NCBI GenBank assembly: GCA_011911785.1
Contig: GCA_011911785.1_4084.1
Reading direction: 5' to 3' (one strand)
Length of the DNA: 64,000 nt
Origin: a phage
Shown here: positions 1,258 to 19,837 of the stretch, in pieces
How the letters are laid out: every line of letters begins with the position of its first letter
Numbering within the stretch: position 1 is the stretch's first letter
Notes under the pieces: generated by a model
What the model was told of the DNA's origin: nothing
Seen by the model: the letters and a program-made list of their open reading frames with translations, nothing else
Database searches by the model: none
Program-made: the position numbers and the translations under genes

Positions 1258-1380
1258 ATGATTGCAATGTTAGAAGAAGATTGGGGTGTTTCTGAACAAG
1301 GAACCGACGAATATCAAGTTCCAGAATACAAGCCAAAAGGCTTCTGGGAAAGTCTGCGTGATTGGTTGATGGGAGAATAA
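1258..1380 (+). CDS. Small ORF (40 aa), hypothetical
   Basis: ATG at 1258 directly after GGAGG; translation MIAMLEEDWGVSEQGTDEYQVPEYKPKGFWESLRDWLMGE; below the length cut-off of the ORF track. Confidence 0.3.
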   Translation: MIAMLEEDWGVSEQGTDEYQVPEYKPKGFWESLRDWLMGE

Positions 1381-1382
1381 GA

Positions 1383-2495
1383 ATGAAAAAATACCTTGTT
1401 GGTGGATACTGCCGCGACCGTCTAATGGGCATTCGTGCAAAGGACAAAGATTATGTCATTGTTGGTGCAACTGAATCTGATATAAAATACTTAGAAAGTA
1501 TTGGATATAAACAGGTTGGTAAAGATTTTCCAGTTTATCTAAGCCCAGAAGGTAACGAACACGCATTAGCCCGTACTGAACGAAAAACTGGTACTGGATA
1601 CGGTGGCTTCGAAGTGGATACAAAAGGTGTAACACTGGAACAAGATTTGTATCGTCGTGATCTTACAATTAATGCAATCGCGTATGATCCAGTACTGCAA
1701 ATTCACATCGACCCATACGGTGGTAAAGCTGATATCAAGAATAAAGTACTACGTCATGTATCCGAACACTTCAAAGAAGATCCATTGCGTGTATTACGTC
1801 TAGCTCGCTTTGCTACGCGTTATTCTGATTTCTCTATACACGAGACTACTGAAGCACTTGCAATCGATATGGTAGCGTCTGGTGAGCTAAATCACCTTGT
1901 TCCAGACCGTGTTTATGTTGAATTTGAAAAAGCACTGTCAGAAGAAAAGCCAGCTAAGTTCCTTAAAACACTAAGTAAGTTTGGTTACTATGAAAAAGCA
2001 TTTAATGCTACATTAACCAAAAAGTCATTGGAACTCATTGATCATATCTCTGATAATTGTACTGAAGCATATAAGCCATATTTCTTATGGTCTGTGCTTC
2101 TTGAGAAAGAAGAAGTTGGCGAGGATTCAGTACTGAATGGTGCTATTAAAATGCCCGTTAAGTACGTTAAATTCAGTAATTACATCAAACGTTTCCGTGA
2201 TGATATCAAGGCATTCCGTAAAAAGACCCCAAATGAAATGGGACAATTATTACTGGATATGAATATCAAGAATAACGGCGGTGAAGAATTCCTTTACAAA
2301 GTACTGGAATATTTTATTCTACGTAAAGAGATTGATTTAGACCTTGAAGATTTAATCATTAAGGTATATGATCGTTACACTGATGTAGTACTTCCAGATA
2401 TTCAACAACTGGTAAAAGACGGTGAGTTAGAAGCATCTGAAATCCGTGATTTTGTTTCAGTTTTACGTTGTGAAGCAATTCAACAAATGTTTTAA
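1383..2495 (+). CDS. cca: CCA-adding tRNA nucleotidyltransferase (class II)
   Basis: N-terminal signature VGGYCRDRLMGIRAKDKDYVIV (GGxxRDxLxG...DxD); ATG at 1383 after GGGAGA; ORF track 1362..2495. Confidence 0.9.
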   Translation: MKKYLVGGYCRDRLMGIRAKDKDYVIVGATESDIKYLESIGYKQVGKDFPVYLSPEGNEHALARTERKTGTGYGGFEVDTKGVTLEQDLYRRDLTINAIAYDPVLQIHIDPYGGKADIKNKVLRHVSEHFKEDPLRVLRLARFATRYSDFSIHETTEALAIDMVASGELNHLVPDRVYVEFEKALSEEKPAKFLKTLSKFGYYEKAFNATLTKKSLELIDHISDNCTEAYKPYFLWSVLLEKEEVGEDSVLNGAIKMPVKYVKFSNYIKRFRDDIKAFRKKTPNEMGQLLLDMNIKNNGGEEFLYKVLEYFILRKEIDLDLEDLIIKVYDRYTDVVLPDIQQLVKDGELEASEIRDFVSVLRCEAIQQMF

Positions 2496-2501
2496 AACTC
2501 T

Positions 2502-2529
2502 GGGACAAGAGAACGACTTCTGATATAAT
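2502..2529 (+). promoter_or_regulatory. Sigma70-like promoter (GGGACA - 16 nt - TATAAT with TGn)
   Basis: gggaca at 2502-2507, tataat at 2524-2529, 40 bp upstream of ATG 2569. Confidence 0.5.
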
Positions 2530-2568
2530 AATTGTATCTGGGCATCATTGCTATTAAGAGATAAGATT

Positions 2569-2998
2569 ATGCGTTATAGTTGTGGCATTATATTTTATCG
2601 TGATGGTCAGATACTTGTTGGACACACAACACGGACAGAAGCATTGGGATTTACCAAAAGGTAAAACCGAGGGCAATGAAACATTTGCTGAAGCTGCTGT
2701 TCGTGAGTGCTATGAAGAAACAGGATTTGAGATTGATGAAAAGGATCTTCTCTTATTAGGTGATGTATCATACAGGAAAGGGAAAAGATTAGTTTTATTT
2801 TTCTATACAGCTAAATACAAACCCGAACCGGATGAACTGAAGTGTAACAGTACTTATACCAATCGATATGGTAAAAGCCATCCAGAATTGGATAAATTCA
2901 TGTACATTGATGTTCAAGATTGTCAAAAGTATTTGACCGAACGAATGTGTAACAGTATAATTAAAGCTGTTAAATTGTTTCAAAAAAATAAAGGATAG
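2569..2998 (+). CDS. Nudix hydrolase, reading frame split by an apparent +1 frameshift near 2630-2660
   Basis: Frame 1 from ATG 2569 encodes MRYSCGIIFYRDGQILVGHTT... and stops at 2662; frame 2 (ORF track 2582..2998) continues with HWDLPKGKTEGNETFAEAAVRECYEETG = Nudix box Gx5Ex7REUxEExGU. Confidence 0.75.
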
Positions 2999-3002
2999 TT
3001 AT

Positions 3003-3251
3003 ATGAAAGTGAAAATTTATGGTCGCACGACTGGTTGTAATTTCTGTGATACAGCAAAAGCAATTTGTGAGAACAATTCATTTGAAATGGATTTTATCGA
3101 TGTGGTTTCTGAAGGTATTGATGGTGCTAAACTATCAGAAATTTGCGGTGAGCCAGTTCGTCAAGTTCCACAAATTTTCGTAAATGATGAGTATGTTCCT
3201 GGTGGATGTACTGGTTTTGTTAACGGGCTAAAAGAAGGTCGCTGGAACTAA
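3003..3251 (+). CDS. nrdC: Glutaredoxin/thioredoxin-like protein (T4 NrdC-like)
   Basis: 82 aa, N-terminal CxxC motif GCNFC and overall layout like T4 glutaredoxin (from memory). Confidence 0.75.
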   Translation: MKVKIYGRTTGCNFCDTAKAICENNSFEMDFIDVVSEGIDGAKLSEICGEPVRQVPQIFVNDEYVPGGCTGFVNGLKEGRWN

Positions 3252-3490
3252 TGAATATCGATAAGGTATCATCACGAGCACGTGCATTGGCTGACAGTTT
3301 GGGAGTTAAATTTGAAACTCCAGATATCAACCAATCAAAACAAAAAGCTCAAAAGAAAATTCATGAAATGAAAGAATACACATCAAGACGTGAAGAATAC
3401 GATGCTGCTATTTCTCACATTATTGAAGTGTTTAGTAAAGATGATATTTTAGCATTTATTGCTTCACATGAGGTTGTAAAAAACCCCTAA
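3251..3490 (+). CDS. Hypothetical protein (79 aa)
   Basis: ORF track; start overlaps stop of upstream gene. Confidence 0.5.
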   Translation: MNIDKVSSRARALADSLGVKFETPDINQSKQKAQKKIHEMKEYTSRREEYDAAISHIIEVFSKDDILAFIASHEVVKNP

Positions 3491-3540
3491 ATAATATTGA
3501 AGAACAACAAGTTCTTCTTAACAATTTGGGAGATACTATT

Positions 3541-3783
3541 ATGCTCAGTTTTCGTGAACAATTAGCAAAAGGTCAATTTCAGACTAAAGCTCAAACAAAT
3601 ATTCCTAAAAAATCTGCATTCTTAGGAACAATTACGGAAGATGGTTATTGTGACTTCAATCCACCAGAAGATAGCTGGTATATTGAAAAAGACACAAAAC
3701 GTAGTAATAGACTTCACAAAAGTACAATAGCAAGAAAGCATCGAAAAGAATTGAAGAAAATTCGTTTCGGTGAAGAAGAATAA
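3541..3783 (+). CDS. Hypothetical basic protein
   Basis: ORF track 3526..3783; ATG at 3541 after GGGAGA. Confidence 0.5.
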   Translation: MLSFREQLAKGQFQTKAQTNIPKKSAFLGTITEDGYCDFNPPEDSWYIEKDTKRSNRLHKSTIARKHRKELKKIRFGEEE

Positions 3784-3795
3784 CCTAATAATATA

Positions 3796-3827
3796 AAGGA
3801 CTTGAGATTATCGAGTCCTTTTCTTTT
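3796..3827 (+). terminator. Rho-independent terminator
   Basis: Hairpin aaggacttga/tcgagtcctt (one G-U) with 5-nt loop followed by ttcttttc. Confidence 0.6.
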
Positions 3828-3838
3828 CGGAGCACTAA

Positions 3839-4315
3839 ATGATACATGAACATAGCGGCAATCTGTTTGATTTATTCAGTACTGTAACTGATGATCATAC
3901 AGCATTACATATTATAGCTCATGGTTGTAACGCACAGGGTAAGATGGGTTCCGGTTTTGCAAAAGAACTCAGAATGCAGTACCCAAAGGCATATGATGAT
4001 TATAAAGAATATGAAAAGAGAATGGGTTTTCTAAGAACCGGACAAATTGCATATTCAGCAATTAATGATGATTTGATTATCGCAAACTGCATTACTCAAA
4101 AATGGTACGGAACTGATGGTGCAAAATACGTAAGCTATGATGCCATTGACGACGTTTTCATGCATTTGAATTTTTTCTGTAAAATTGAACGAAATGTTCA
4201 TGTACACTTTCCGAAAATTGGAGCCGATTTGGGCGGTGGTAACTGGAACGTTATCAAAGAAATCATTGACCACAGGCTGGTTAATGCTGAAAAACATTTA
4301 TATATTCTCAAATAA
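3839..4315 (+). CDS. Macro-domain (ADP-ribose binding/processing) protein
   Basis: Motif HIIAHGCNAQGKMGSGFAKEL resembles the macro-domain NxxGxMGxGxA signature. Confidence 0.55.
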   Translation: MIHEHSGNLFDLFSTVTDDHTALHIIAHGCNAQGKMGSGFAKELRMQYPKAYDDYKEYEKRMGFLRTGQIAYSAINDDLIIANCITQKWYGTDGAKYVSYDAIDDVFMHLNFFCKIERNVHVHFPKIGADLGGGNWNVIKEIIDHRLVNAEKHLYILK

Positions 4316-7118: not shown

Positions 7119-9782
7119 ATGGCAGGAGAACTCCTATCGCCTGGCGTTTCCATTTCAGTTACTGATGAAAGTATGAGCACTGCTTCCGCACCTGGAACAG
7201 TACCACTATTCATCATTGCTACCGCAGAAGATAAATTAGTACCAGGTAGCAACACAATCGCTGCTGGAACCACAAAAGCAAATGCTGGTAAGTTGCAACT
7301 TCTAACTTCTCAGAAAAGTTCACTAGACACTTACGGCACACCGATTTTTCAATCAAGTAATGGTTCAGTTGTTCAAGGTGACGAACTAAACGAATACGGC
7401 CTACATGCTGCTTATTCTTACCTTGGTATTACTAACCGTGCTTATGTTGTACGTGCAGATATCGACTTAGCACAACTATCACCTTCTGCTACTGCTCCAA
7501 CTGGTCCAGTACCAAACGGTACATTGTGGCTAGATGTTGCTCAATCACAAGTTGAAGCATATGTTTCTAAAGTGGATTCACCAACCAGTTTCTATGACTG
7601 GCAACTAAAACCAGTAACTATTGTTAGTGCTGAAGAAGTTAGTGATGTTAGCCTAGTTGGTATTAACGTTGACGATCTAGTACTACGTTATAAGCCAAGC
7701 AATGGTCAAATGCTAATGTACAAACGTGCAGCATCTGGTCTAGTTCAAGTTGAAACTTACCTTTCACCAATCAACAAAGTACCAGTAGGTAATACAGTTG
7801 AGAAAGGTAATATCTGGATTCGTGATGGTTACACTCAAAATGGTGCTAATTACTTCGGTACTCGTTTTGTTATTAAACGTTATGCATCCCTAACTCAAGT
7901 TTGGAATCAAGTACAAGCATTCACTGGTAACAGTTTCCAAGAAATTGAATCCAAAAGTGGTGTTCTAAATAACAGCTTCATCGCTACTCGTTTTGACTGG
8001 GATAGTAAGAGTTTCTCTTTCTATATTCAAAGTGCAAAATTACCAGCACTAAGTGCTCCAGCGATTCCAGTTGGTGAAACTGTAGTTGTTCAAGCAGACC
8101 AAGATTCTTACTTGACTTTCTCTTATTTGACCAAAACTGTTAAAGTACTAGCAGTTGCACTAGGTGGTGTTATTAACACTCAAACTATTCTTGACAATCT
8201 AAATGCTTCATCTGAACTAATCAATGATGGCTTTAAATTTAAAAGAGAAAGTAATGGTGGCCTAGTAATTAATAGTTCTAAAGGTTATAGTTTCAAAACT
8301 GCACAAAGTGGTAGTGTACTATTTGATGAAGATGAATTTGCAAAACTAACTGTTGATAGTAATAACTATGCTTTGATTAACGTTAACAATTTCCGTGTTG
8401 ATAGTAACGTTCCACGTAGTATCGCTAAAGAAGGTACTCTATGGTATGATTTCAGTAATTCTGATAATCTAAATGTTACCATGTATCTAGCTGATGTTGC
8501 TAATGACAAATGGGTTGAAGTTGACGAAGCTAACAAATATGTGCAAGTTGACGAACCTGCTGCTGACCGTACAATCTGGGTTTCTCCTAAATCACAAGGT
8601 ATTGATGGCTACGATTTCTATCGTAATGTTAATGGTGAGTGGGTTAAACTTGACAGTACTGACCAAAGTACACTAAACGGTATGATCTTCAAGGACTTTA
8701 ACTTCCCTGAACAAGTTCCTGCGGCTGCTCTATACCAAAACGGTATGCTCGCAATCGACCTTGGAAATACTGAAGGTGTGGTTAAGAAAATGATCGATGG
8801 ATTTTGGCATGTTGTCAGTGGTGTTGGTCTTGATGGGAATGGCTTGTTTGGTCGTGCTGCTCAACGCCAATTGGTAGTAGAAGCACTAAATGCAGTTATC
8901 GTTGGAAACGATGATATCCGTTCTGAATTCATTGACTTTAACCTAATTTCTGTTCCTGGTTATGTTGAATGTTTAGATGAGTGTGTGACCCTAAACACCG
9001 ACCGTAAAGAAACTGCTTTCATCGTAACTGATGTTCCAGCACGTTTGAACCCAACTGGTAACGGTAATGCTGTTCAACAATGGGCAACTAACGCAAATAA
9101 CGCACCAAGTAATGGTGATGTTGGTCGTACTACTGCATATGATTATGCTGCTCAATATATGGGCTGGTGCTTAAGTACTAACGTTGATGGTGAAGAAGTT
9201 GCAGTTCCTGGCAGTACTATTGCAATGCGTACCTATGCATACAGCGACAGCGTAAGTTATGTATGGTATCCACCTGCTGGTACTACTCGTGGTGTTGTAA
9301 CAAACGCTGCATCTGTAGGCTTCATCAATGATGAAGGTGAATATCAGCCAGTGGTTTATAACCAAGGTCAACGTGATGTAATGTACACCAACAACATTAA
9401 CCCAATTGCAATGCGTCCAAATCGTGGTTTGCTAGTATATGGTGATAAAACACTATCTCCTAACCAAACTTCCGCATTAAGCCGTGTTAACGTTGCACGT
9501 TTAGTTGTTTATATTCGTCGTCAACTAGAAATTATTTCTGAACCATTCCTATTCCGTTTGAATACTCCAAGTACTCGTCAGGAATTCAGTGGTGTAGTTA
9601 ATAGCTTCCTAGCTGAAATCGTTCAACAACAAGGTCTATATAACTTCGCAGTTGTTTGTGATGAAAGTAACAACACCTCCGAGCGTATTGACCGTAACGA
9701 ACTTTGGATGGATATCGCAATCCAACCTACTAAGTCTATCAACTTCATTTACGTACCGATTCGTATTGAAAAGACTCAATAA
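7119..9782 (+). CDS. Tail sheath protein (gp18-like)
   Basis: N-terminal LLSPGV and C-terminal VVCDESNNTSERIDRNE...IQPTKSINFIYVP match conserved T4 gp18 termini; strong GGAGGA SD. Confidence 0.9.
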   Translation: MAGELLSPGVSISVTDESMSTASAPGTVPLFIIATAEDKLVPGSNTIAAGTTKANAGKLQLLTSQKSSLDTYGTPIFQSSNGSVVQGDELNEYGLHAAYSYLGITNRAYVVRADIDLAQLSPSATAPTGPVPNGTLWLDVAQSQVEAYVSKVDSPTSFYDWQLKPVTIVSAEEVSDVSLVGINVDDLVLRYKPSNGQMLMYKRAASGLVQVETYLSPINKVPVGNTVEKGNIWIRDGYTQNGANYFGTRFVIKRYASLTQVWNQVQAFTGNSFQEIESKSGVLNNSFIATRFDWDSKSFSFYIQSAKLPALSAPAIPVGETVVVQADQDSYLTFSYLTKTVKVLAVALGGVINTQTILDNLNASSELINDGFKFKRESNGGLVINSSKGYSFKTAQSGSVLFDEDEFAKLTVDSNNYALINVNNFRVDSNVPRSIAKEGTLWYDFSNSDNLNVTMYLADVANDKWVEVDEANKYVQVDEPAADRTIWVSPKSQGIDGYDFYRNVNGEWVKLDSTDQSTLNGMIFKDFNFPEQVPAAALYQNGMLAIDLGNTEGVVKKMIDGFWHVVSGVGLDGNGLFGRAAQRQLVVEALNAVIVGNDDIRSEFIDFNLISVPGYVECLDECVTLNTDRKETAFIVTDVPARLNPTGNGNAVQQWATNANNAPSNGDVGRTTAYDYAAQYMGWCLSTNVDGEEVAVPGSTIAMRTYAYSDSVSYVWYPPAGTTRGVVTNAASVGFINDEGEYQPVVYNQGQRDVMYTNNINPIAMRPNRGLLVYGDKTLSPNQTSALSRVNVARLVVYIRRQLEIISEPFLFRLNTPSTRQEFSGVVNSFLAEIVQQQGLYNFAVVCDESNNTSERIDRNELWMDIAIQPTKSINFIYVPIRIEKTQ

Positions 9783-11735: not shown

Positions 11736-13849
<2,114 letters not shown>

Positions 13850-17814: not shown

Positions 17815-18159
17815 ATGATACCACAACCCACTAACAGCACTGAATTTCAAAATGAAGTACTTATAAAAGTTAAAGAAGTACATGAATCGGACGCTGAAAT
17901 CACTGACAGAATGCTTCTGATGTCTATTTTTGAAAACTTCAGAACTGGTGGTGGTTTGAGGCTTAGTAAGTATGGATTTATGATTTGTGAAGAAAATAAT
18001 CTTTATGAATTTACAAAAATCCCCTTGCTAAGAGAGTTCAAAAGCTCTATAATATTTACATCGCTTGATAGAATATGTAGAAGTCCTTATTATGTTGATG
18101 GCTACTACATATATCTCTCCGATGCAATGGTAGTTACTGAATTAACATTGTGTCGGTGA
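17815..18159 (+). CDS. Hypothetical protein (114 aa)
   Basis: ORF track. Confidence 0.5.
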   Translation: MIPQPTNSTEFQNEVLIKVKEVHESDAEITDRMLLMSIFENFRTGGGLRLSKYGFMICEENNLYEFTKIPLLREFKSSIIFTSLDRICRSPYYVDGYYIYLSDAMVVTELTLCR

Positions 18160-18511: not shown

Positions 18512-19837
18512 ATGAGCGAACAACAAGATATCCTGAACGTAAAACTGACTCCTAAGAAAGCAAAAATGGCTATGGCTCTGGCAGATAAAATTCAGGATAG
18601 TCTGATGATTTGGGGTAGCCCTGGTATCGGTAAGTCTGCGATTGCACGTCAATACGCTGACGAGAACTATCCTCTTCGTAAGGATAACTTGGCTAAAATC
18701 GAGTTCATGAAACAACAAATTGAAGTTGATACTGAAAATGCTGATGCACTTCGCCGCGAACTGGCAGCGTTTGAAGCAAAACTGATTGACCAAGACACTA
18801 ACTTCATCGACTTCCGTTTGTCACAGATTGAACCAAGTGACCTACGTGGTATCCCAGTCCCTGAAAAAGTGTTCCTGGATATGGATGGCAAACAACTGAT
18901 TGAATCTGAACTGGAAACAGCTAAAGATTACATTGCTGAAACAGCAGTTGTATGGGCAGCACCTAAAGTACTGAAACTGTCTCCAGATTGGAAAGGTGTT
19001 ATCCTGTTTGACGAAATTAACTCTGCTATGCCGATTGTACAGGCAGCGTCTTATCAGCTAATCCTCGACCGTTGTGTTGGTGAGATGAAGCTACCTAAGA
19101 CTGCACTGATTCTCGCAGCAGGTAACCGTGAAACTGATGGCGGCGTAACGTTCTCTCTGGCAACGCCACTACGTGACCGTATGACCCACATCGAAATGGT
19201 TCCTTACCATCAAGATTGGATTGACGATTACGCGATTGCTAAGCGTTTGAACCCAGGTACTGTTGCGTTCATCAACAACACTGGTGCTAAGTACTTCAAC
19301 ACCCTTAGCCCACAAGATCCTTCTCACAGTGGTGGTACTTCTCCACGTTCATGGGAAGCAGTAGCACGCTACGAAGACCTGAAGAAAGGCAACAACATTG
19401 ATAAAGAAGTGTTCCGTGCTCTAATCGCTGGTCGTGTTGGTGAAGGTGTAGCAACTGAATATATCGAATACGTAGAAAACGTATCTAAACTACCAGATAC
19501 TATGTCCATCCTACAGGGTGAGATTAAAGAGATTGATGCAACGCTGGATATTTCTGCGAACTACTTCATCTCTCTGAATCTGGTTTATAAAATTATCGAC
19601 CTGTACAATGAGAAGCAAGAACAACGTCTTCCAGTTGAAGAGTGGGGCAAGCTGTGCAACAACTTCATCACCTTCCTGGACCGTAACTTCTCCGAAACTC
19701 AGGCAGAACTGGCAGTACTAGCAATTCGTACCATCACTCAACATAAGGTAGCGATTGCGTACAAAGATGTTCCAGCGTTCAAAGACTTCGTTATGAAGTA
19801 CTCTGACCTAGTACGCAAAGCACGTTCTCTTGGTTAA
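18512..19837 (+). CDS. MoxR-like AAA+ ATPase
   Basis: Walker A GSPGIGKS, Walker B ILFDEIN, single AAA module, 441 aa. Confidence 0.85.
   Translation: MSEQQDILNVKLTPKKAKMAMALADKIQDSLMIWGSPGIGKSAIARQYADENYPLRKDNLAKIEFMKQQIEVDTENADALRRELAAFEAKLIDQDTNFIDFRLSQIEPSDLRGIPVPEKVFLDMDGKQLIESELETAKDYIAETAVVWAAPKVLKLSPDWKGVILFDEINSAMPIVQAASYQLILDRCVGEMKLPKTALILAAGNRETDGGVTFSLATPLRDRMTHIEMVPYHQDWIDDYAIAKRLNPGTVAFINNTGAKYFNTLSPQDPSHSGGTSPRSWEAVARYEDLKKGNNIDKEVFRALIAGRVGEGVATEYIEYVENVSKLPDTMSILQGEIKEIDATLDISANYFISLNLVYKIIDLYNEKQEQRLPVEEWGKLCNNFITFLDRNFSETQAELAVLAIRTITQHKVAIAYKDVPAFKDFVMKYSDLVRKARSLG

Follow-up and report, generated by a model that had tools for sequence, protein, structure and literature searches.

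A Nudix gene carried in two reading frames by Asteriusvirus phages and its probable expression by +1 frameshifting at ACA_CGG_A

Natural +1 frameshift sites on bacterial ribosomes are few, and the proven ones, prfB of Escherichia coli and genes of Listeria phage PSA, use slippage of the P-site tRNA. The prfB site (CUU_UGA_C) combines an upstream Shine-Dalgarno (SD) sequence, re-pairing in the P site from CUU to UUU, and autoregulation of RF2. A different type is known from yeast Ty3 GAG3-POL3 (GCG_AGU_U), in which the +1 shift occurs at a hungry A-site codon without P-site re-pairing and the incoming +1 aminoacyl-tRNA sets the frame. The capsid and tail genes of phage PSA shift at CCC_UGA and ACA_CCC_UCC (PMC5009743). 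Atkins et al. review +1 shifting in glass-sponge mitochondria, where a C or T inserted just 5' of GGA creates an extremely rare CGG_(A) or UGG_(A) codon, and the shift at this codon is taken to be Ty3-like (PMC5009743). By FSscan, CGG is a favoured E. coli A-site codon for +1 shifting, and in yehP mass spectrometry has revealed the product of a +1 shift at GTT_CGG_C (PMC2790909). The gene considered here encodes a Nudix protein in a stretch of phage DNA of 64,000 nucleotides (nt; GenBank assembly GCA_011911785.1, contig GCA_011911785.1_4084.1), referred to below as the window. Its coding sequence is divided between two frames, and the full-length product is probably made by +1 ribosomal frameshifting at ACA_CGG_A without P-site re-pairing.

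The window comes from an Asteriusvirus jumbo phage, being 99.8% identical to Escherichia phage A4 over bases 2450-3050 and 82-83% identical to TH47, UE-S1, JNE01, and Turkey5 over the same bases. Frame 1 runs from its ATG through MRYSCGIIFYRDGQILVGHTT, the first 21 residues of the Nudix protein, then through RTEALGFTKR to a stop that lies two codons earlier in most relatives than in the window. Frame 2 is open from the GTG at 2582 to the stop at 2996-2998 and takes up the Nudix sequence at GGA 2633 with GQKHWDLPKGK. The Nudix box that follows (GX5EX7REUXEEXGU, GKTEGNETFAEAAVRECYEETGF) is complete: all signature residues are present, the first U being Cys. The 0 and +1 frames overlap at 2582-2664, and the sequence obtained by joining them is colinear with that of single-frame relatives. 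The joined product would be 142 amino acids (aa) long in the window and about 142-147 aa by lineage. Its trans-frame junction peptide, as read from the sequence, is DGQILVGHTTGQK in the window and A4 and DGQILIGHTTGQNHWDLPK in 121Q. An earlier note on this DNA had described a Nudix gene split in this way, and its account of the start at ATG 2569, the frame-1 stop, and the Nudix box in frame 2 agrees with the present reading.

Homology places both halves in one protein. Frame 2 alone matches Pfam NUDIX (PF00293) with 47.6 bits over profile positions 24-100; with the frame-1 N-terminus joined on, the match reaches 52.9 bits over positions 7-100 (curated cut-off, 21.1 bits). The alignment of the joined protein with the Ap4A hydrolase PDB 3i7u begins at query residue 3, and its match to phrog_1185 spans residues 1-140 (E = 1.5e-52). 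By these alignments the N-terminal strands are part of the Nudix fold. The joined protein is also 36-40% identical to genes annotated nudE in T4-type phages. T4 NudE, the product of gene e.1, acts on FAD, ADP-ribose, and Ap3A, and the likeness of the window protein to it lies in the family match and the intact Nudix box. From its sequence, the gene looks to be in working order and is best explained as a functional gene of the Nudix superfamily, homologous to T4-type NudE. The NudE homologues of T4-type and other jumbo phages are all single open reading frames (ORFs), whereas the Asteriusvirus gene is split.

The locus was read in 13 sequences: the window, A4, TH47, UE-S1, JNE01, Turkey5, 121Q, ph0011, Ecwhy_1, G17, SD-1_S14, fEgEco12, and one metagenome contig. 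All 13 have the two-frame layout and an invariant ACAACACGGACA. When the joined protein was used as a tblastn query, each of 35 Asteriusvirus records, representing 33 genomes, aligned only from residues 13-22 onward, whereas more than 1,200 other phage homologues, the closest intact relatives among them, aligned from residues 1-4, as single-frame genes do; the split is thus implied in 33 Asteriusvirus genomes. Metagenome contigs were also scanned with a pattern confined to the N-terminal coding part and independent of the shift site; of the 11 Nudix loci recovered, only the 121Q-like one was split. IMG/VR contained a single Asteriusvirus locus (121Q). The arrangement is beyond chance, because it is identical in every Asteriusvirus genome examined despite nucleotide identities of 82-83%.

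The divergence from intact relatives comes down to one base. At the junction, intact relatives read ACN ACN GGN CAR (ACA ACA GGT CAG in Serratia phage BF, ACA ACC GGA CAA in contig L048, ACG ACT GGT CAG in phage EJP2), while Asteriusvirus reads ACA ACA C GGA CAG. Homology to the intact genes extends in frame 1 up to and including ACA 2629-2631 and resumes in frame 2 with GGA 2633-2635, and the extra base is therefore C2632. The switch had earlier been placed within the acacaacacgga tract, correctly, and can now be narrowed to this position. Once C2632 is taken out, TTGQ is restored without gain or loss of a residue, and the junction becomes GHTT-GQKHW in the window and GHTT-GQ(K/N/Q)HW across the set, as in single-frame relatives. 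The best explanation of the comparison is that a single C was gained by the common ancestor of the genus between Thr21 (ACA) and Gly22 (GGA). The split is real, ancient, and maintained.

Escherichia phage EJP2 (OQ411014.1) is labelled Asteriusvirus, yet its Nudix gene (1501-2178, + strand) is single-frame. The gene runs without a stop into the glutaredoxin ORF, forming one 225-aa Nudix-glutaredoxin frame annotated as 'glutaredoxin 1'. The glutaredoxin of EJP2 could also be initiated on its own.

Purifying selection changes frame at the shift site, acting on frame 1 before it and on frame 2 after it. Across six Asteriusvirus lineages, the 120 downstream codons contain no stop and no indel, and their ratio of nonsynonymous to synonymous divergence (dN/dS) is 0.05-0.09 (~0.06) at dS 0.2-1.7 (~1). 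Eight nucleotide sites vary in the 21 upstream codons. Seven of them are frame-1 third positions, all with synonymous changes (binomial p = 0.0026 for the third-position bias), and the eighth exchanges Val and Ile. Compared with intact outgroups, the N-terminal segment gives proportions of synonymous and nonsynonymous differences (pS and pN) of 0.26-0.77 and 0.02-0.17. Read in frame 2, the upstream changes produce non-conservative replacements and, in every relative read except A4, a TAA just after GTG 2582. The earlier note had allowed that orthologs might share the two-frame arrangement with a conserved GTG start at 2582 and a frame 1 devoid of Nudix-like sequence; the arrangement is indeed shared, but the GTG start is not conserved as an open one and frame 1 is Nudix-like. 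The substitution pattern indicates that each half has long been translated and constrained in its own frame; it also speaks for a functional product that still includes the N-terminal strands.

The initiation signals are also preserved. The promoter-like elements CTGATATAAT and the GGACA hexamer are kept in relatives, and GAGATAAGA(T)TATG is unchanged in all eight Asteriusvirus sequences compared. The promoter named in the earlier note (2502-2529) is present as a pattern match, and the SD that it rated as good is present as AAGAGA, which is only moderate.

At the shift site itself, the protein sequence leaves four positions free (A2628, A2631, C2632, and A2635), and these are invariant in eight of eight sequences, against 14 of 37 comparable fourfold sites. 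The chance of four such invariant positions is about 0.38^4 = 0.02, which lends modest support to a signal at the nucleotide level. CGG, the codon that the A site presents in the zero frame, is the rarest sense codon in the 45 long ORFs of the window. It occurs twice among 19,718 in-frame codons, whereas the counts of CGG in the two other phases are 68 and 137. Each of the tRNA clusters of 121Q, A4, and UE-S1 supplies a tRNA for the P-site ACA, tRNA-Thr(UGU), and one for the +1 codon GGA, tRNA-Gly(UCC). The anticodon loops of both are of the usual 7 nt; tRNA-Arg(CCG) is absent from all three clusters. The published tRNA sets of Sharanji, UE-S1, and fEgEco12 are in agreement with this (PMC11895373 among the sources). 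In E. coli, tRNA-Arg(CCG) is scarce, at ~639 copies per cell (PMC2790909). Two other in-frame CGG codons, at 13244-13246 and 18154-18156, were considered as frameshift sites and rejected, the +1 frame being open for just 12-15 codons after them. No further CGG-linked pair of 0 and +1 ORFs in the window has homology support.

In the proposed mechanism, translation would begin at ATG 2569 in frame 1 and bring peptidyl-tRNA-Thr to the P site on ACA 2629-2631. The A site would then display CGG, a codon read by the scarce host tRNA-Arg(CCG) alone. During the resulting pause, a fraction of ribosomes would take the phage-supplied Gly-tRNA(UCC) on the overlapping GGA 2633-2635, pass over C2632, and translate frame 2 as far as the stop at 2996-2998, producing the 142-aa Nudix hydrolase with the junction GHTT-GQKHW. 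Ribosomes that do not shift would stop at 2662-2664 and release a 31-aa peptide. Because the P-site tRNA cannot re-pair, the shift, if ribosomal, must be of the Ty3 type. Programmed +1 frameshifting had been one of several options in the earlier note and is the one that the evidence favours; that the event is ribosomal, and that it takes place at the CGG codon without P-site re-pairing, is the part of this reading that we infer.

Set against described systems, the decoding event would belong with +1 frameshifting, compensatory or programmed, at hungry codons, closest to the glass-sponge cases and Ty3. The hexactinellid mitochondrial sites share with the Asteriusvirus site an inserted base just 5' of GGA, a rare zero-frame codon, restoration of the ancestral protein, and the very motif CGG_A. 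In both, the +1 shift is presumed. They differ in using mitochondrial ribosomes and tRNAs and in affecting several respiratory genes, where the present case is a phage gene on E. coli or Salmonella ribosomes. Ty3 is alike in its slow A-site codon and in the lack of P-site re-pairing in the proposed shift. Ty3, however, is eukaryotic, has a downstream stimulator, and makes an extra, longer product beside a functional zero-frame protein; in Asteriusvirus the zero-frame product would be a 31-aa fragment, and no stimulator was found.

The E. coli sites, namely prfB and the FSscan CGG candidates yehP, pepP, and cheA, share the ribosomes, the host tRNA pool, and a poorly decoded A-site codon. Neither the upstream SD nor the P-site re-pairing of prfB is present at the Asteriusvirus site, and whereas the yehP shift truncates its protein, the Asteriusvirus shift would complete it. 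Phage PSA offers the likeness of a phage gene with a +1 ribosomal shift. Its shifts depend on tRNA-Pro slippage on CCC and yield C-terminally extended structural variants beside the normal product; Asteriusvirus, in contrast, has no slippery P-site codon and would need the shift for the sole full-length form of an enzyme. The best-supported reading is that decoding of a known type has a new setting here, in a phage gene translated on ribosomes of enterobacteria; the case is unreported as far as the searched literature shows.

Several points weigh against +1 frameshifting at ACA_CGG_A. The +1 move turns the P-site ACA into CAC, which does not pair with the anticodon UGU, and the site is in this respect unlike those of the prfB/Ty1 type. 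Most proven bacterial +1 sites need re-pairing; on bacterial ribosomes, shifts of the non-slippage type are rare or unproven. The shift site has no SD-like stimulator upstream, and the GGN CAY that precedes it varies. Both tRNA-Thr(UGU) and tRNA-Gly(UCC) are common in phages, so their presence is permissive rather than specific. The literature searched gives no Asteriusvirus peptide, ribosome-profiling, or reporter evidence for the gene, and no report of the Asteriusvirus Nudix split or its frameshift. The Nudix ortholog of Klebsiella phage fENko-Kae01, which is single-frame, was detected by liquid chromatography-tandem mass spectrometry according to its GenBank note.

RNA structure adds a further difficulty. 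Insertion of the C gives rise to CACGGACAG, a complement to CUGUUCGUG within the AAVRE codons of the Nudix box, and the predicted helix pairs 2630-2638 with ~2697-2705 and so contains the shift site itself, with some pairs broken. In 121-nt folds scored against shuffled controls, four split genomes gave z-scores of -3.6, -2.8, -1.7, and -1.1, and three intact ones, which lack the helix, gave -0.8 to +0.1. RNAalifold on eight sequences revealed no covariation or compensatory changes in this helix. The single-sequence folds show a trend only, and the helix is left unexplained and is not counted as a stimulator.

A last objection is that ATG 2603, in frame 2, is present in all members, which would allow a C-terminal fragment to be initiated separately. 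On this account the gene would work in two pieces without recoding, as a 27-31-aa N-terminal peptide and a ~131-aa Nudix protein that lacks the first two strands, the two assembling non-covalently or acting separately. Such an arrangement appears rather improbable. GenBank annotators all start at ATG 2603, and the Asteriusvirus records inspected annotate only a truncated Nudix of ~132-136 aa from this codon; frame-1 selection on the upstream segment would also fit a peptide that is functional on its own. No SD-like sequence precedes ATG 2603, however, and the codon arises incidentally from the conserved CGT GAT GGT, which encodes Arg-Asp-Gly; the intact genes of Munch and Serratia phage BF have this ATG as well. 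The frame-2 residues encoded between 2603 and 2632 vary non-conservatively (VRYLLDTQH, VRYLSDIQH, VRYLLVIQH, GRYLSGIQH). The position of the indel, moreover, is precisely the one at which a join of the frames gives back the ancestral sequence, and the N-terminal strands are covalently attached in the more than 1,200 homologues.

Recoding might instead proceed by another route, such as quadruplet reading of CGGA or ACAC, a hop of tRNA-His from CAY 2623 to CAC 2630, a -2 shift, or transcriptional slippage, all of which together seem quite improbable. The junction in the product is a predicted one, and CAC 2630-2632 is a possible landing codon for tRNA-His, but hopping would lose the conserved Thr-Thr. 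After a -2 shift, the window and A4 (CAC ACA) alone would allow re-pairing onto ACA, which is lost in the other genomes (CAT ACA), and polymerase slippage would find no homopolymer run at the site. Quadruplet decoding draws on an expanded-loop tRNA gene of UE-S1, which shows that such tRNAs exist in the genus. Its anticodon, UCAU, would however read AUGA rather than CGGA or ACAC, ARAGORN finds the gene only in UE-S1, and the Thr and Gly tRNAs have loops of normal size. A dedicated suppressor tRNA was sought in the window, in A4 1-50 kb, and in the tRNA clusters of 121Q, A4, and UE-S1, and was rejected, the sole tRNA with an 8-nt loop having the wrong anticodon.

The expanded-loop gene encodes a well-formed tRNA, lies at 2875-2949 (+ strand) of UE-S1 (ON568341.1), overlaps the annotated coding sequence UES1_111, and scores 51.8 bits against the Rfam tRNA model. 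Its 8-nt anticodon loop is CUUCAUAA, and ARAGORN reports it as tRNA-??? (tcat), with no ARAGORN counterpart in the 121Q or A4 clusters. It probably corresponds to the tRNA named 'Undet' in the UE-S1 paper, and may be either a decoder of the quadruplet AUGA or a CAU tRNA that a 1-nt insertion has put out of action. In A4 (ON286972.1), ARAGORN finds a tRNA-Gly(tcc) at 9000-9075 (+ strand) that is missing from the GenBank record. A second seryl tRNA is Ser(gct) in A4 and Ser(act), with an unusual A34 anticodon, in 121Q and UE-S1. Phage 121Q (NC_025447.1) has a tRNA-like gene at 18585-18663 (+ strand) in which 4 nt replace the D-arm, the variable arm is long, and the anticodon loop is that of UCU (Arg). 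This gene scores 32.6 bits against Rfam tRNA and is missed by ARAGORN; it is annotated as tRNA-Leu(taa), and its UE-S1 counterpart as tRNA-Arg. In its anticodon stem-loop it hardly differs from the neighbouring tRNA-Ser(tga).

Decay of the gene after inactivation by a 1-nt insertion, another option of the earlier note, is highly improbable. A frameshifting indel followed by an early stop is the usual signature of inactivation, but six lineages keep the 120 downstream codons free of further stops and indels at dN/dS ~0.06, and a dS of ~1 rules out very recent divergence as the source of that ratio. The upstream segment, too, changes synonymously in frame 1, and the promoter pattern and SD are conserved. 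The chance of a sequencing or assembly error in this record, which the note had also raised and which only the single-base nature of the change favours, is negligible, since the same C, in a context that is not homopolymeric, was read in 13 sequences from independent laboratories in Ireland, the USA, Pakistan, China, the Czech Republic, Canada, Brazil, Germany, South Africa, and Finland and from a metagenome contig, and is implied in 33 genomes. Selection on both halves therefore excludes sequencing error and pseudogenisation alike. Table 1 collects the coordinates of the locus and its surroundings.

Table 1. Features of the split Nudix gene and its surroundings, in window coordinates
Feature	Position	Strand	Remarks
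Sigma-70-like promoter pattern	2502-2529	+	GGGACA, 16-nt spacer, TATAAT, upstream TG (extended -10); 10/12 matches plus TG
SD-like AAGAGA, moderate	2556-2561	+	8 nt before ATG 2569
Frame-1 coding segment	2569-2631	+	Nudix residues 1-21, MRYSCGIIFYRDGQILVGHTT; homologous to N-termini of intact relatives and PDB 3i7u
Frame-2 GTG, alternative start of the earlier note	2582-2584	+	In-frame TAA follows in relatives except A4
Internal frame-2 ATG	2603-2605	+	Start in GenBank annotations, ~131-132-aa product; no SD-like sequence upstream
Proposed shift site ACA_ACA_CGG_A	2626-2635	+	E-site ACA, P-site ACA 2629-2631, zero-frame A-site CGG 2632-2634, +1 codon GGA 2633-2635
Extra base C relative to single-frame relatives	2632	+	Comparison with BF and L048
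Frame-2 coding segment	2633-2998	+	Nudix residues 22-142 and stop
Nudix box GX5EX7REUXEEXGU, GKTEGNETFAEAAVRECYEETGF	2660-2728	+	Translation and Pfam NUDIX match
Frame-1 stop TAA	2662-2664	+	Predicted end for non-shifting ribosomes, 31-aa product
CCA-adding tRNA nucleotidyltransferase	1383-2495	+	Pfam PolyA_pol; upstream of Nudix gene
Glutaredoxin	3003-3251	+	Pfam Glutaredoxin; downstream of Nudix gene
ORF after glutaredoxin and two small ORFs	3839-4315	+	Macro-domain by annotation of related records
Other in-frame CGG codons, ORFs of at least 100 aa	13244-13246, 18154-18156	+	Extreme 3' ends: codon 139 of 152; last codon before TGA

The Nudix gene stands within a conserved block on the + strand (window 1362-4315). 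The last ORF of the block has no Pfam match at E <= 0.001. Such surroundings suggest that the enzyme serves RNA-end or ADP-ribose metabolism in the infected cell. The A4 record gives the name 'glutaredoxin' to the ORF at window 3251-3490, which has no Pfam match, and 'hypothetical protein' to the one before it (window 3003-3251), the actual match to Pfam Glutaredoxin; the labels of A4_538 and A4_539 look like an off-by-one shift.

A +1 shift at ACA_CGG_A may have a regulatory role, possibly that of throttling Nudix output from a strong promoter. A stronger proposal is that the split is used and not just tolerated. The gene would then depend on an obligatory Ty3-type +1 shift on E. coli ribosomes, with an efficiency set by the balance of host tRNA-Arg(CCG) and phage tRNA-Gly(UCC), and Nudix output would track the host and phage tRNA pool. 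This proposal is speculative and on present evidence unlikely to hold in full. Tight control of Nudix dosage could matter where RNA or ADP-ribose is metabolised in the infected cell. Should the frameshift be real, the Asteriusvirus Nudix annotations are wrong, giving ~132-136 aa where the protein would have about 142-147 aa. If the reading is true, the genus-wide ACA_CGG_A would bring +1 shifting of the Ty3 and glass-sponge type into E. coli, where tRNA levels, tRNA modification, and reporters are easily manipulated.

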